NCBI RefSeq assembly: GCF_013167455.1
Contig: NZ_CP038328.1
Direction: 5' to 3' (one strand)
Length of the DNA stretch: 64,000 nucleotides
Origin: Escherichia coli O157:H7
GTDB lineage: Bacteria > Pseudomonadota > Gammaproteobacteria > Enterobacterales > Enterobacteriaceae
Below, piece by piece: positions 18,001 to 24,000 of this stretch. Each line of letters starts with the position of its first letter. Position 1 is the stretch's first letter. The position numbers are program-made.

Positions 18001-21000
18001 ACCATTTTCGGTACTGTTTTTATTAACAGCACCAATTTTACCCACCTTTAAAGACTCCCGTTTTTGGGTGTATTCAGGCTCGGCAACACTTTCTTCTACA
18101 CCGATAAGTCGGTACACCACAATTTGCTTTGTTCTGCCTTTTCTCTCACCGGTATCAACAATTAACCCAATCTCCATCAGGTGTCGTAAGCTGTCCTGCA
18201 CAGTCTTTTTGTTCAGTTCCGTTACTTCTGCCAGTGCAGATACAGACGGGTATGCACACAAATCGGCACCGCACATATCAGCAAGCCAGGTCAATACTGA
18301 CTTACTGGATGAACTGCCGGTTTTCACCTTTTTAGCCCATCGTAGTGCATCGATACTCATACGCCCCCCTGGCAGACATTTGTTTATCTGCAAAGTAATA
18401 TTGGTATTGCTGACGATACGCGTGCTTGAAAGCAATAGCTTTTTCTATAAGCTCGTCAGTCTCACGTTCCACAACAACTGGATCCGCAAAAAGCAGCCCG
18501 GACTCCACCACATCGCCATATTCTTTGTTTAACCCGGCGATCATGTACGTAATGCTTTTTCCGTCAGTAATTTCACAATACAATCTGAAATCGCTGATCC
18601 GGATAGCCTCCATAATTGCCGGAATCAGCGCCGTGAATTTGTCACGCTTATCTCTGGTGTCGATAGCTTTCCAGCGTTCGAATATCTTCACCCGGTTAAC
18701 GCCCAGCGCCCGTTGATCAACCTCGCCATCATTAAACGTGACGCGTTGAACATCGATGTTCGGGCGTTCTTTCAGAGCCCAGAATGCTTCCGTGATTAAT
18801 ATCGTCGCCTGCTCCTGTGTCATTCCTGGTCGGCATACCCAGGTATCCAGAGCCTCACAAACCTGTTCAGTGGTGATTTTCATTGTTCAACCGCCCCGCC
18901 CGCTTTGCCTTACGATATTCGTCATAAACTTTGGGGTCGTACTGAAGTTCCCCGCCGGATGCCTCTTGCAGGCGCATCGCGCGACCTTCAGGAACCAGTT
19001 CCCCCCATGCAGCAACGCTTGCCAGCCTAACTCCTGCGACATTGGCAAGCTTTGTTTTGCTGCCAAAAAACGCTATAGCATCAATTTTCAACATATCGAA
19101 ACCCTTAGATTTTCCTAAGGAAACTAGATCGTAGAGAAACCTAAGTCAAGAAAAATTAGAATTACCTAATATGAAAAACGAAACCTTCGGTGCTCGCCTC
19201 TTATACAGGCGAAAAAAATTAAAACTGTCTCAGGCCGCATTAGGTAAGCTGGTCAAAGTGGCTCACGTAACAATTTCTCAATGGGAAAGAGATGAAACAC
19301 AGCCAGCGGGGAAGAGATTATTCGCACTGAGCCAGGCGCTTCAGTGCTCGCCGACTTGGCTTCTTTTTGGAGATGAAGATAAGCAACCAGGCGAACCGAT
19401 CCCAGATAATCAGCCAGTCAATCTGACAGAAGATCAAAAAGAGTTGCTTCAACTGTTCGACGCACTGCCTGAGTCAGAGCAAAAGGCTCTGTTGTCAGAG
19501 ATGCGTGCTCGAGTTGAGAATTTCAACAAACTTTTTGAAGAACTACTCAAAGCTCGCAAAAGAAGCGCAAATAAATAACCCCCCTTTTTTTCGCAACTCT
19601 CTGTAATAAAAAGCACAAACTTTCAAATACTTGTGTTTTTTACATCAAGAAGCTTAGGTTTTTCTACACAAAAAGCTTGACCATAACTCTTAGGCTATTC
19701 TAAATTCCACTCATCAAGACACCGCACGGTGTTCTCAGCAAACAGTTCCGCTACCCGGCGTTAAGGGGAAGCAGAGGATTTCTCAGTGGGCGAGTCAAAC
19801 ATCAGAATGGAAGGCGTCCAGGGATCAGCAAAGAAACAGCGATGGCGCTTTATATTGATATCAGCGCCATTGCCGGACAGGTAAGAGTTATCAGAGCGGT
19901 AACTAAGCGGTATGCGCCTTTACTTCAGAAAGTCTCTGGTGAGTGCACCGAAGATATTGTCAACGATTTCGTCATCGAACTGCGAGGACTCATCTTCAGT
20001 TACAAGGTGACCACAATTTTTGCAGATGGCTCCCGCGAAACTGTCAGAGCCCTGCGGCTTAAAGGATGTGTCAAAGACTTAGCCACCACATTCTGGGCAA
20101 GAAAACTTGATTGTATTCATAACCAATTTCCTCTCGAGTAACAGACCCCTCAGAGGATACCACCTCGCCTGACGTGGTTAAAAAGCAGGCAACGCTAACC
20201 ACAAGGAGCCGACATGCAGAAACGAGACCCCGTCATCATCGCGCCAGACTATACCGATGATGAACTTTATGAGTGGATGCACCAGAAAATTAAGGCGGTG
20301 CAGGACCTGAAATGGGCCAATGAAGCCAGGGCTAAGCAGGCTGAAAATCTGTCCGCTCTGGAGCAGGATATCACCAATCTGGAAAAAGCAGCGGCATTAA
20401 GCATTGCCAGAATGATTACATACCCACGTTAATAGCTAACCAACGAGGCTAATAATGGAATTTAAAGATTTACCAACGCCATTACAGGAAATGGCATCGA
20501 ATATAGTTCGTTCACAACTGGCTACTCTTGACCTTAGTACCGCAGAAAAAGAAACCATCGATAATATGGTTCGTAATGTGCGCAATGCTTTTTCTGGGCT
20601 ATATGGTTCTGATAATCAAAAGCAGGAAAGCGATGTTAATAAACGGGTAATTTCTGTTTGCGTGAATGGCCATGTTCTTTCATCAATCAAAACAGAAACG
20701 GCGACAGTCTTCGATTGCCTTTGCATTGTACAGAGCCTTGTTGATGCCCTGTTTCGTTCAGTGAATTTAGAAAATGATGCAAATCTGCGAGGGCGCATAA
20801 TAGCACATCCATATGCACATACTTTAGGCTCTGTGGATATCAAAGATCCCACAAATCTTTAATGAAATAGTTAACGCGAATTGTACTTGCTCTTTCGGTT
20901 GCTTTCAGAATACGCGTTGAAACTGCTGGCGGTAATTTGGTATTCCATTTATTAAAATCATGCCCGGGAAAGTACTCTTCGAAAATACTTTTAACTGCAG

Positions 21001-24000
21001 ACTCGCCTATTGAAATGCTGCTTACCATGCGATTTTGATAAAGGCATTTAGCAATAAGAGTTGATTTTAACATTCACCCTCCTGAGGGTTGGTAATTAAG
21101 GAGTTCTCCACGGGTGAAGTGGAGTGCGTGCGCCGGACACGGGTGAACATCCGGCACTGACAGTTTACTGAAAGGATATTTCTCTGAAAAGTCAGAGCAT
21201 AACGCGAAAGCGCACGGCGAGGTTGCTGGTTCATAGATAGCCTGTCGTTAAATTTTCGTCGACCGTGCGCTTCCGGTTGTGGCACTCCGCGAAATGGCGC
21301 AGCGGTAAGTATGGCGGGGTTATTCCTTCCCCGTTGAGGACACCGGGTTGTCAGGTTGACCATACGCTTAAGTGACAACCCCGCTGCAACGCCCTCTGTT
21401 ATCAATTTTCTGGTGACGTTTGGCGGCATCTGTTTGCCCATGAACTGATGTCCGCCCTTTTTAAAGTGAATTTTGTGATGCAGTGAATGCGGCTAAGCGC
21501 ACGCGGAACAGTTAAAGCTAAAAACAGTGTTATGGGTGGATTCTCTGTATCCGGCGTTAATTGTTAACTGGTTAACGTCACCTGGAGGCACCAGGCACCG
21601 CATCACAAAATTCATTGTTGAGGACGCGATAATGGAAACGTTATTACCAAACGTTAATACGTCTGAAGGTTGTTTTGAAATTGGTGTCACTATCAGTAAC
21701 CCTGTATTTACTGAAGATGCCATTAACAAGAGAAAACACGAACGGGAGTTATTAAATAAAATATGCATTCTTTCAATGCTGGCCCGTTTACGTCCGATAC
21801 AAAAAGGATGCTGGCAATGAATACAGCATTTGCACTTGTTCTGACAGTTTTTCTTGTTTCCGGAGAGCCAGTTGATATTGCAGTCAGTGTTCACAGGACA
21901 ATGCAGGAGTGTGTGACTGCAGCAACCGAACAGAAAATTCCCGGTAACTGTTACCCTGTCGATAAAGTTATTCACCAGGATAATAACGAAATCCCGGCAG
22001 GTCTTTAAAACAGTTCCGTAATAAACATCCGATTTCATTCTTATATGCCAGCAATGGCAGGGATTTGTTCACCCTTAAATCTGTAATGAGGTAAAACAAA
22101 ATGAGTAAAGTCTTTATTTGCGCCGCCATTCCGGACGAACAGGCAATAAAGGAAGAAGGTGCAGTCGCTGTAGCCACTGCCATTGAAGCCGGTGATGAAC
22201 GTCGCGCCCGCGCAAAATTTCACTGGCAATTCCTGGAGCATTATCCGGCTGCTCAGGACTGCGCTTATAAATTTCTTGTTTGCGAGGATAAACCCGGTAT
22301 ACCCCGCCCTGCCCTCGATTCCTGGGATGCTGAATATATGCAGGAAAACCGCTGGGATGAGGGGGCTGCTTCCTTTGTCCCGGTTGAGACTGAATCCGAT
22401 CCGATGAACGTCGCTTTTGACAAGCTGGCCCCTGAAGTACAGAACGCTGTCATGGTTAAGTTCGACACATGTGAAAACATCACCGTTGATATGGTGATTA
22501 GCGCGCAGGAATTGTTGCAGGAAGACATGGCAACATTCGACGGACATATCGTTGAAGCGTTGATGAAAATGCCAGAAGTTAACGCCATGTATCCGGAGCT
22601 TAAGCTGCATGCCATCGGGTGGGTTAAGCATAAATGTAAGCCTGGTGCCAAATGGCCCGAAATTCAGGCAGAAATGCGCATCTGGAAAAAACGTCGCGAA
22701 GGTGAACGCAAGGAAACCGGAAAATACACGTCTGTTGTTGATCTCGCCCGCGCCAGAGTCCACCGACAGCACACTGAAAACTCAGCAGAAAAAATCCCCC
22801 CTGTCACTGCAGTCATTCGTCGCGAATATAAGCAGACATGGAAAACACTGGATGACGAACTGGCCTACGCTCTCTGGCCTGGTGATGTGGATGCCGGAAA
22901 CATTGACGGCAGCATCCATCGCTGGGCAAAAAATGAAGTTATCGACAACGACCGCGAAGACTGGAAGCGTATCTCGGCATCAATGCGCAAACAGCCTGAT
23001 GCCCTTCGCTACGACCGCCAGACTATTTTTGGCCTTGTCCGTGAACGTCCGATCGACATTCACAAAGACCCTGTGGCACTGAACAAATACATTACTGAAT
23101 ACCTGACTACAAAGGGCGTGTTTGAAGATGAAGGAACAAATCAGAGCGCAACTGACACTCTCTCGTCGCCAGTACCAGAAACTGATGCAGTGGAAACGGC
23201 AATTCCGGACAACGAAAAAACCGAATGCAAAGTGGAAGTCGAACCATCTGTAGAGCGTGAGGGGCCGTTCTACTTCCTCTTCACCGACAAGGATGGCGAA
23301 AAATACGGTCGCGCAAACAAACTTTCTGGTCTGGATAAGGCGCTGGCTGCCGGGGCTACTGAAATCACAAAAGAAGAATATTTTGCCCGAAAAAATGGCA
23401 CATACACAGGCTTACCGCAAAATGCAAATACCGCACAAAATTCTGAACAACCAGAACCGGTAAAAGTTACCGCTGACGAAGTAAAGAAAATTATGCAGGC
23501 AGCCAATATCAGCCAGCCTGACGCCAATCAGTTGCTCGCCGCATCACGTGGTGAATTTGTTGCAGGGATTAGCGACCCGAATGATCCGAAATGGGTGAAG
23601 GGGATTGAAACCCGCGATTCTGTGAACCAGAACCAGCAAGAAACGGAACAGAACGACCAGAAAGCGGAACAAAACAGCCCAAATACGCAACAAAACGAGC
23701 CAGAAACGAAACAACCTGAGCCAGTAGCGCAACAGGAACCGGAAAAAGTCTGCACCGCCTGCGGTCAGACCGGCGGCGGCAACTGCCCTGATTGTGGCGC
23801 GGTGATGGGCGACGCAACATACCAGGAAACATTCGATGAAGAGTATCAGGTTGAAGTTCAGGAAGATGATCCGGAGGAAATGGAAGGCGCTGAACATCCA
23901 CACAAGGAGAACACTGACGGCAATCAGCATCACGATAGCGATAATGAAACTGGCGAGACGGCAGATCACTCAATTAAGGTGAACGGTCATCAAGAAATCA

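Follow-up and report, generated by a model that had tools for sequence, protein, structure and literature searches.

A convergent, overlapping gene pair in the early-left operon of an Escherichia coli O157:H7 prophage, a possible lysogen effector with an early-lytic partner

Which genes lie between the early-left operator of a lambdoid prophage and the small RNA DicF, and which of them belong together? We address this question for a 64,000-nt stretch of an Escherichia coli O157:H7 genome (contig NZ_CP038328.1 of assembly GCF_013167455.1; hereafter the window), where a preliminary description had placed three plus-strand open reading frames (ORFs) and one convergent antisense ORF between an OL-like operator and DicF. 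All four were found exactly where it had put them: ORF A (99 aa, 19842-20141, + strand; RefSeq WP_001240336, phrog_21318), ydfC (72 aa, 20214-20432, +), gene C (135 aa, 20455-20862, +) and gene D (77 aa, 20840-21073, - strand), the last being antisense to the operon and preceded by the Shine-Dalgarno (SD) sequence AGGAGG. RefSeq annotates all four in an O157:H7 chromosome that is 100% identical to the window. The four ORFs occupy the part of a dicBF-type early-left operon nearest its promoter, in an O157:H7 lambdoid prophage next to ompW (CP-933O/OI-57 type). Within it, as judged from sequence comparison, the C-terminal domain (CTD) of C and the D protein are an uncharacterised, strictly linked pair of families, whose conserved architecture is distinctive and whose location is of a known type.

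The two genes meet tail to tail and share 23 nt at their 3' ends, on both strands (20840-20862). This overlap contains the palindrome AAAGAT-N7-ATCTTT, and C and D therefore both end in I-K-D-x-x-x-L. Among 34 distinct pairs, a 77-aa D always came with a 23-nt overlap and a 78-aa D with one of 26 nt; in Erwinia and Providencia the two genes likewise overlap by 23 nt, in Citrobacter by 51 nt. A CTD homologue converges on D in 40 of the 41 non-E. coli loci recovered through D. At every such locus in Serratia, Dickeya and Klebsiella the CTD gene converges on D with a 23-nt overlap, and the pair adjoins, or stands one gene from, a CI/LexA-type repressor gene and is antisense to the early-left genes. 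Starting from the CTD instead, three independent loci were recovered, in Erwinia, Providencia and Citrobacter, and each carries a convergent D. In each of these six genera the pair is next to, or within one to two genes of, the CI gene; in the window, an antisense zinc-ribbon gene (described below) and ydfC separate it from the repressor gene. Since the genes that flank the pair vary from locus to locus (RdgC, YfdP/DUF2303, Exc/Int, dicF/dicB), the linkage between CTD and D is not simply that of a larger frozen block. Outside E. coli, pair and overlap are retained even where identity has dropped to 55-72% for D and to roughly 24-47% for the CTD. A D gene without a CTD partner was not seen in any enterobacterial locus examined. 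The CTD does occur without D: in a 201-aa variant of C in E. coli and Salmonella the CTD is retained and extended by a 66-aa tail, the convergent gene is an unrelated one of 63 aa, and no D lies nearby.

The product of D is a real protein with a wide distribution. An exhaustive profile search returned 159 representatives, nearly all of them standalone and 74-80 aa long, and homologues of about 77 aa with 55-72% identity occur in Klebsiella, Raoultella, Serratia, Dickeya, Xenorhabdus, Yersinia, Morganella and Salmonella. W43 is present throughout the family and C10, L11, F31 and I71 in almost every member, and the protein sequence is under strong constraint. AlphaFold2 (AF2) predicts a compact, all-helical fold of five helices with high confidence (predicted local distance difference test, pLDDT, 96.9; predicted template-modelling score, pTM, 0.86). 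D has no match in the PDB, no Pfam family and no PADLOC match, and 73 distant homologues likewise have no Pfam family. One public source labels this exact protein a 'dGTP triphosphohydrolase'; we found no support for that label in a 77-aa protein with no matching family or fold.

C, by comparison, is modular. It consists of an N-terminal module (residues 1 to ~55, MEFKDLP...), a disordered linker (residues 49-62) and the CTD (residues ~62-135), for which AF2 predicts a beta-hairpin and two helices (pLDDT 68 for the whole of C). While phrog_1363 covers all of C, each half also matches separate PHROGs. The N-terminal module occurs in E. coli and Salmonella proteins of 109-212 aa whose C-termini are unrelated: variants of 135, 201, 208/212, 133/137, 124/126 and 129 aa share residues 1 to ~55, and the module is joined to at least five different C-termini. 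The last ~74 residues of C have homologues that stand alone as proteins of 75-107 aa in many Enterobacterales. The CTD also has fusion partners: a YdfC-like domain (35% identical to YdfC in a 62-residue alignment, E 1e-9) and a ClpX-type zinc ribbon, PF06689. This N-terminal C4 ribbon is carried by some CTD proteins (L069, 4212-4730; Citrobacter L097, 3001-3420), the genes of which overlap D by 26 nt and 51 nt, respectively, and it hints at a possible link to ClpX or its adaptors.

In E. coli, the stretch between ydfC and the DicF leader, where C and D are located, behaves as a polymorphic accessory-gene slot. C and D are missing at this position from the Qin prophage of K-12, and the C/D block is present in 644 of 5426 complete E. 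coli genomes, part of the DicF leader being present in about 4000 of the 5426. Besides the window state, a 135-aa C-type gene with the convergent 77-aa D, we found C-type genes of 201 aa facing an antisense gene of 63 aa (L106), of 133 aa facing a split one of 27 + 64 aa (L103), of 208 aa facing one of 69 aa (L104) and of 109 aa facing one of 91 aa (L101); in K-12 (L002) and APEC O1 (L099) the slot is empty, with neither a C-type nor an antisense gene. Five different C-termini are each accompanied by their own convergent small gene, a pattern that simple linkage could also produce. The antisense genes of the window, L101, L103 and L106, four of the five occupied states, begin directly after a common ribosome-binding site (RBS), CTCAGGAGGGTGAA, at the conserved leader edge; this is the minus strand of the first ~15 nt of a conserved block (21074-21407), and it serves different antisense genes. 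C and D could, then, be independent accessory genes, their overlap a matter of tight packing and their co-occurrence the result of block inheritance between recombination-prone flanks. The variable block in E. coli is indeed bounded by the N-terminal coding module on one side and the antisense RBS and leader on the other, so that any content would be swapped together, and the CTD can occur without D. Outside E. coli, however, these flanks are missing and the neighbours differ, yet the pair and its overlap are kept despite divergence, and we consider independence of the two genes unlikely.

What might such a pair do? Slot polymorphism of this kind is the usual signature of host-interaction or defence-related cargo, and the preliminary description had suggested host-takeover or anti-defence genes, to be sought by remote homology and structure prediction. 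Searches of all four ORFs against Pfam, NCBIfam, PHROGs and PADLOC returned only PHROGs without an assigned function, and ORF A, YdfC, C and D had no match among the defence models of PADLOC-DB v2. The alternative slot-cassette proteins have no Pfam or PADLOC match; they and the zinc-ribbon protein gave PADLOC hits at noise level only (E about 0.002 or weaker, 11-17 bits). Searches of the PDB by sequence and fold, and of BFVD (viral predicted structures), produced no match with a known function, and no toxin-like fold or family was found. The pair does not look like a type II toxin-antitoxin system either, its genes being convergent and without a Pfam, NCBIfam, PADLOC or fold match. A literature search by accession and locus tag found no match, nor any transcript, phenotype or expression data for C/D. 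The idea of host-interaction or defence-related cargo has the polymorphic slot in its favour; in the libraries compared, which covered defence systems, protein families and structures, no ORF matches a PADLOC model, a Pfam family, or a solved or viral predicted structure of known function.

Gene structure, conservation, linkage, slot polymorphism and the confidence of the D fold are matters of observation, and the reading of them that we prefer, at a probability of roughly 0.35, is that D is expressed in the lysogen and that the CTD of C is an early-lytic partner which neutralises it. In the lysogen, where the early-left promoter is repressed, the prophage would make D. C would be made once the promoter is derepressed, and its CTD would bind and neutralise D, while convergent transcription across the overlap would simultaneously shut down D synthesis. 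The overall logic would be that of a prophage effector with lytic-phase self-immunity. The expression phases, the physical interaction and the assignment of D as effector are here all what we infer. Given the opposite strands, the tail-to-tail overlap and the persistence of both across distant phages, a cognate pair with opposite expression phases seems the most economical reading. As to polarity, orphan antidotes are commoner than orphan effectors; because the CTD is tolerated without D, and D was not seen without the CTD, D may be the active component and the CTD its neutraliser.

The polarity could also be the reverse, with C an early-lytic host-takeover or toxic effector acting through its variable CTD, and D its immunity protein, which in the lysogen would absorb leaky early-left expression and be overwhelmed on induction. 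C and D do have a build reminiscent of polymorphic toxin and immunity genes, with a conserved N-terminal module, a variable C-terminus and a co-varying small gene immediately downstream, and induction of the corresponding K-12 operon is extremely toxic (PMC5069750). We nevertheless find this polarity improbable: the CTD stands without D in the widespread 201-aa variant, where an unprotected toxin domain would not be expected to last, it is mostly a standalone protein of ~77 aa with no delivery or N-terminal module, and no toxin-like fold or family turned up.

In other genera, about 60 nt upstream of D are conserved (CCACnTCAGGCGnnGGTGGTATCTT..ACACAACCAAGA). A cassette of the CCACGTCAGGCGAGGTGGTATCCT type precedes D in Serratia, Klebsiella and Yersinia-type phages (it lies upstream of D in L003, L007, L076 and other loci) and precedes the zinc-ribbon gene in E. 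coli, where it lies in the window at 20150-20185 on the minus strand (CCACGTCAGGCGAGGTGGTATCCT itself at 20154-20177). This cassette is a candidate extended -10 promoter (TGgTATCTT) combined with an inverted repeat, a possible operator. Its GTGGTAT is invariant in 11 of 11 sequences, and its occurrence before D in other genera is consistent with D having a promoter of its own. The cassette consensus is CCACnTCAGGCGnnGGTGGTATC(T/C)T, and its loop-adjacent stem position varies between C:G, A:T and G:C among phages. A consensus promoter scan does not flag the cassette. RNA structure in it was considered and rejected (-2.15 kcal/mol, no compensatory pairs).

In another account nucleic acids would do the work, transcription of D and of the zinc-ribbon gene attenuating leaky read-through into the toxic dicF and dicB by interference and antisense pairing, with the proteins secondary. 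The two antisense genes are situated downstream of the repressor-controlled promoter and upstream of DicF/dicB, they have the conserved promoter-like cassette in common, and the K-12 operon requires tight control (PMC5069750, PMC10448788). Such an account is very unlikely to suffice, as the D protein is strongly constrained and confidently folded (pLDDT 97), the pair is found in many phages with no dicF/dicB downstream, and no conserved RNA structure was found.

Several observations weigh against a lysogen effector neutralised by C. Upstream of D in E. coli the TATCTT element has been lost, with GTGGAGAACT in its place, and a search of 450 nt predicts no sigma-70-like promoter for D, so that in the window prophage the gene is at most a candidate for expression in the lysogen. 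The 201-aa variant implies that the CTD has, or can have, a role independent of D, and co-inheritance of adjacent DNA between conserved flanks could explain the co-variation in E. coli without any functional pairing. A narrow D alignment search gave two distant loci with differing contexts; one distant D homologue (L092) sits between an HNH gene and a small terminase gene, and at another (L091) the convergent partner was not recognised by the CTD profile. C and D have no PADLOC match, and the AF2 model of C, at its pLDDT of 68, is only moderately confident. The sole promoter candidate found upstream of D in E. coli is a promoter-like TTAACA-N16-GAGAAT between dicF and dicB (21540-21567, -), which would give a transcript antisense to DicF and heading towards D.

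The remaining question is what the other two ORFs are. The 99-aa ORF A is very probably a shadow ORF, an annotation artefact and not a gene. The strand opposite to it, in codon-aligned register, encodes a 66-aa zinc-ribbon product of the ECs_2282 family (MNTIKFSCPECGGEVF...CKNCGH..., with the signature CPEC...CKNC; 19920-20120, -). In this antisense register, in which spurious long ORFs are common, codon position 1 of ORF A is codon position 3 of the zinc-ribbon gene. Among 10 alleles, 13 of the 15 polymorphic sites in the overlap fall at codon position 1 of ORF A, none at position 2 and two at position 3. These 10 alleles specify nine distinct ORF A proteins, and the ratio of non-synonymous to synonymous polymorphism (pN/pS) of ORF A is 0.83; one allele with 95.3% DNA identity encodes an identical zinc-ribbon protein and a 99-aa product with many replacements. 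No SD sequence is visible before the ATG of ORF A; the zinc-ribbon gene has one, AGAGGAAA, at about 20129-20136. ORF A reaches no Pfam or NCBIfam family at threshold (the best Pfam hit, B1, scores 15.9 bits against a cut-off of 25), and the intact zinc-ribbon allele scores 57.3 bits against NCBIfam NF047912 (ECs_2282_CxxC), well above the cut-off of 37. It is the polymorphism pattern, the pN/pS, the lack of a visible SD and the curated antisense family that lead us to call ORF A a shadow. An N-like antiterminator had also been considered for ORF A; it was rejected by eye for want of an arginine-rich motif and became moot with this result.

We conclude that the true feature at this position is the antisense zinc-ribbon gene, inactivated by a nonsense mutation and hence a pseudogene in the window prophage. 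Its frame has the CxxC...CxxC of NF047912 and is interrupted at codon 14, reading ...CPECGG*VF... with TAA at 20079-20081; this stop is the sole difference from the intact allele, and the frame is intact in APEC O1. The stop is common to 12 of the 23 loci that carry the zinc-ribbon region. In APEC O1, 06-00048 and E2, the Prokaryotic Genome Annotation Pipeline (PGAP) calls an 'ECs_2282 family putative zinc-binding protein' on the strand opposite to ORF A. Among the matches listed, all those with at least 99.7% identity carry the shadow-ORF annotation, and nearly all those with 95-99% identity carry the ECs_2282 annotation. The class with at least 99% identity comprises 536 of the 5426 complete E. 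coli genomes, which suggests, as an estimate and not a count, that the nonsense allele is present in approximately these genomes. The zinc-ribbon protein resembles Lar restriction-alleviation proteins at the level of the zinc ribbon only (E 0.01).

The 72-aa ORF can be identified as YdfC: 68 of its 72 residues are identical to K-12 YdfC, it is found upstream of dicF, PGAP names it 'protein YdfC' and it matches phrog_1744 (E 9e-39). Its polymorphic sites number 2, 8 and 17 at codon positions 1, 2 and 3, the third-position bias of a coding gene, with a pN/pS of 0.36, and its ribosome-binding site is strong (SD AAGGAG). YdfC is predicted to be a small coiled-coil-like protein and has no known function (PMC5069750). 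In 11 of the 41 non-E. coli loci the CTD gene is either fused to a YdfC-like gene or immediately preceded by one, so YdfC is part of the CTD neighbourhood beyond E. coli as well.

These identities change the picture from which we started. The cluster had been described as unannotatable, which does not hold for two of the ORFs, the 72-aa one being YdfC and the strand opposite the 99-aa one matching a curated NCBIfam family. The three plus-strand ORFs and one antisense ORF do exist as such; with the 99-aa ORF probably no gene, the layout in intact relatives has ydfC and C as sense genes and the zinc-ribbon gene and D on the antisense strand, two of each. Membership of the early-left operon stands for ydfC and the 135-aa gene, which lie in a repressor-controlled dicBF-type operon, but not for the zinc-ribbon gene and D, which are antisense to its transcript. 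The lack of conservation or coding signal that would have spoken against real genes was found for the 99-aa ORF, and clearly not for D, YdfC or the CTD of C. We give little credence to the original view of four early-left coding genes, some of them independent anti-defence or host-takeover factors. The early-left operon position favours it, as does the fact that PGAP calls all four and that they have PHROG families; it is contradicted by the substitution pattern of the 99-aa ORF, which is that of a non-coding shadow frame, by the location of D and the zinc-ribbon gene on the other strand, and by the lack of a match in any catalogue searched.

The setting of the pair is of a kind known from K-12. 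The early-left promoter region (19653-19706, +) contains TTGACC-N18-TAAATT at 19677-19706, overlapped by two operator-like sites, CTTAGGnnTTTCTAa, at 19653-19667 and 19690-19706. These match sites in the cro/repressor intergenic region (inverted-repeat pairs I1 and I2), which bears out the OL-like operator of the preliminary description, just as a DicF match at 21408-21457 bears out the other flank. A DicA/CI-type repressor gene and a divergent cro-type gene are present, the repressor operators lie at the operon promoter, and ydfC, a long leader, DicF, dicB and a ydfD-like gene follow in dicBF-type order on one strand. Transcription is predicted to run rightward from the promoter at ~19677-19706 through ydfC, C, the long leader, DicF and dicB, and no convincing intrinsic terminator was found between the window genes. 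This arrangement of promoter and operators is that of dicA/dicBp in K-12 Qin, where DicA represses dicBp 22-fold (PMC10448788). In K-12, a polycistronic ydfABC-dicF-dicB transcript under DicA repression is cut by RNase E and RNase III to give DicF, and such a single processed transcript is known for K-12 only (PMC5069750, PMC10448788).

Compared with K-12 Qin (dicA / ydfA-ydfB-ydfC-dicF-dicB-ydfD), the window has the same layout of repressor, cro and promoter and, apart from the closely similar ydfC, a near-identical 5' leader, a common leader of ~320 nt before DicF, and dicB with a DUF1482 (YdfD-like) gene downstream. It differs in having the antisense zinc-ribbon pseudogene and the 99-aa ORF where K-12 has ydfA and ydfB, in the ~650-bp C/D cassette between ydfC and the DicF leader, where K-12 has nothing, and in a diverged 3' half of DicF. 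The conserved operon leader (19707-19771, +), read directly from the sequence, contains a hairpin, ACACCGCACGGTGT (19719-19732), that is identical in K-12 upstream of ydfA and may be a signal for transcript stability or processing; homology to the K-12 sequence upstream of ydfA stops after GTTAAGGGGA. A 32-aa ORF with a GTG start (19786-19884, +) and a good SD (AGAGGA) overlaps the start of ORF A and may be a leader peptide or a chance occurrence. Some relatives have a ParE/RelE-type toxin-antitoxin pair between the repressor gene and the early-left promoter (L100, 699-1178; L107, 1194-1672), and the neighbourhood thus gathers accessory modules.

Downstream of D, the conserved block at 21074-21407 (both strands) is, on the plus strand, the long untranslated leader before DicF. 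Its part from 21087 to 21407 matches the ydfC-dicF spacer of K-12 and is kept in about 4000 E. coli genomes. The DicF copy that follows (21408-21457, +; RF00039, 43.5 bits, E 4.2e-7, below the Rfam gathering score of 48) has the 5' half of K-12 dicF and a different 3' half, the terminator stem, and is one of several DicF copies in O157 prophages; dicB lies at 21632-21820 (+) by RefSeq annotation. A sub-threshold Rfam match to STnc100 (21446-21651, +; 32.5 bits against a gathering score of 47, E 3e-4) extends from the 3' end of DicF to the start of dicB. PGAP extends antisense genes into the minus strand of the leader in some genomes (145 aa in L101, 54 aa in APEC O1), and a 124-aa minus-strand ORF (21067-21441), antisense through leader and DicF, is probably spurious. 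The DicF precursor here crosses ~650 extra nt that hold an antisense gene, which may alter the output of DicF and DicB relative to K-12.

How does the pair compare with known systems? The proposed logic is that of BstA/aba, a prophage defence with self-immunity that is encoded beside the repressor locus (PMC8585504). In other genera the C/D pair likewise lies near the prophage repressor locus, although the presence of an effector and its neutraliser at one locus is only proposed here. BstA is large and aba is a piece of DNA within the bstA gene, whereas the window has two small proteins on opposite strands, with no sequence or fold similarity between the systems. The polymorphic CdiA-CT/CdiI and Rhs-CT/RhsI systems resemble C/D in that a conserved N-terminal part carries interchangeable C-terminal domains and a small downstream gene changes together with the C-terminus. 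C and D are, however, very small cytoplasmic phage proteins with no secretion, delivery or recognised toxin domain; D is convergent and overlapping, not co-directional, and most genera have the CTD as a protein of its own. Convergence with a short overlap of the 3' ends is also a feature of the type I toxin-antitoxin pairs txpA/RatA and bsrG/SR4 and of the promoter interference in coliphage 186, and by analogy the overlap would make expression of C and D mutually antagonistic. In contrast to txpA/RatA and bsrG/SR4, C and D both encode conserved proteins and have no membrane-toxin features.

To conclude, the operon, ydfC by name and the zinc-ribbon family, curated though uncharacterised, were already known, and for annotation our analysis offers a correction, since RefSeq calls the shadow ORF a protein in all listed genomes at least 99.7% identical to the window. 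The D/CTD pair spans Escherichia, Klebsiella, Serratia, Yersinia, Dickeya, Erwinia, Providencia, Citrobacter, Xenorhabdus and others. It belongs to no Pfam family, lacks structural relatives, and occupies the place in lambdoid prophages where regulation is most sensitive. A broader and more doubtful proposal is that the CTD/D pair and the other pairs of the slot represent an undescribed class, in which an antisense effector of the lysogen faces an overlapping early-lytic protein antidote, the genetic switch flips the ratio between the two, and the whole is exchanged as polymorphic units. Should the pair indeed work as effector and antidote in step with the switch, it would constitute a small and new system for defence, exclusion or buffering of the switch.

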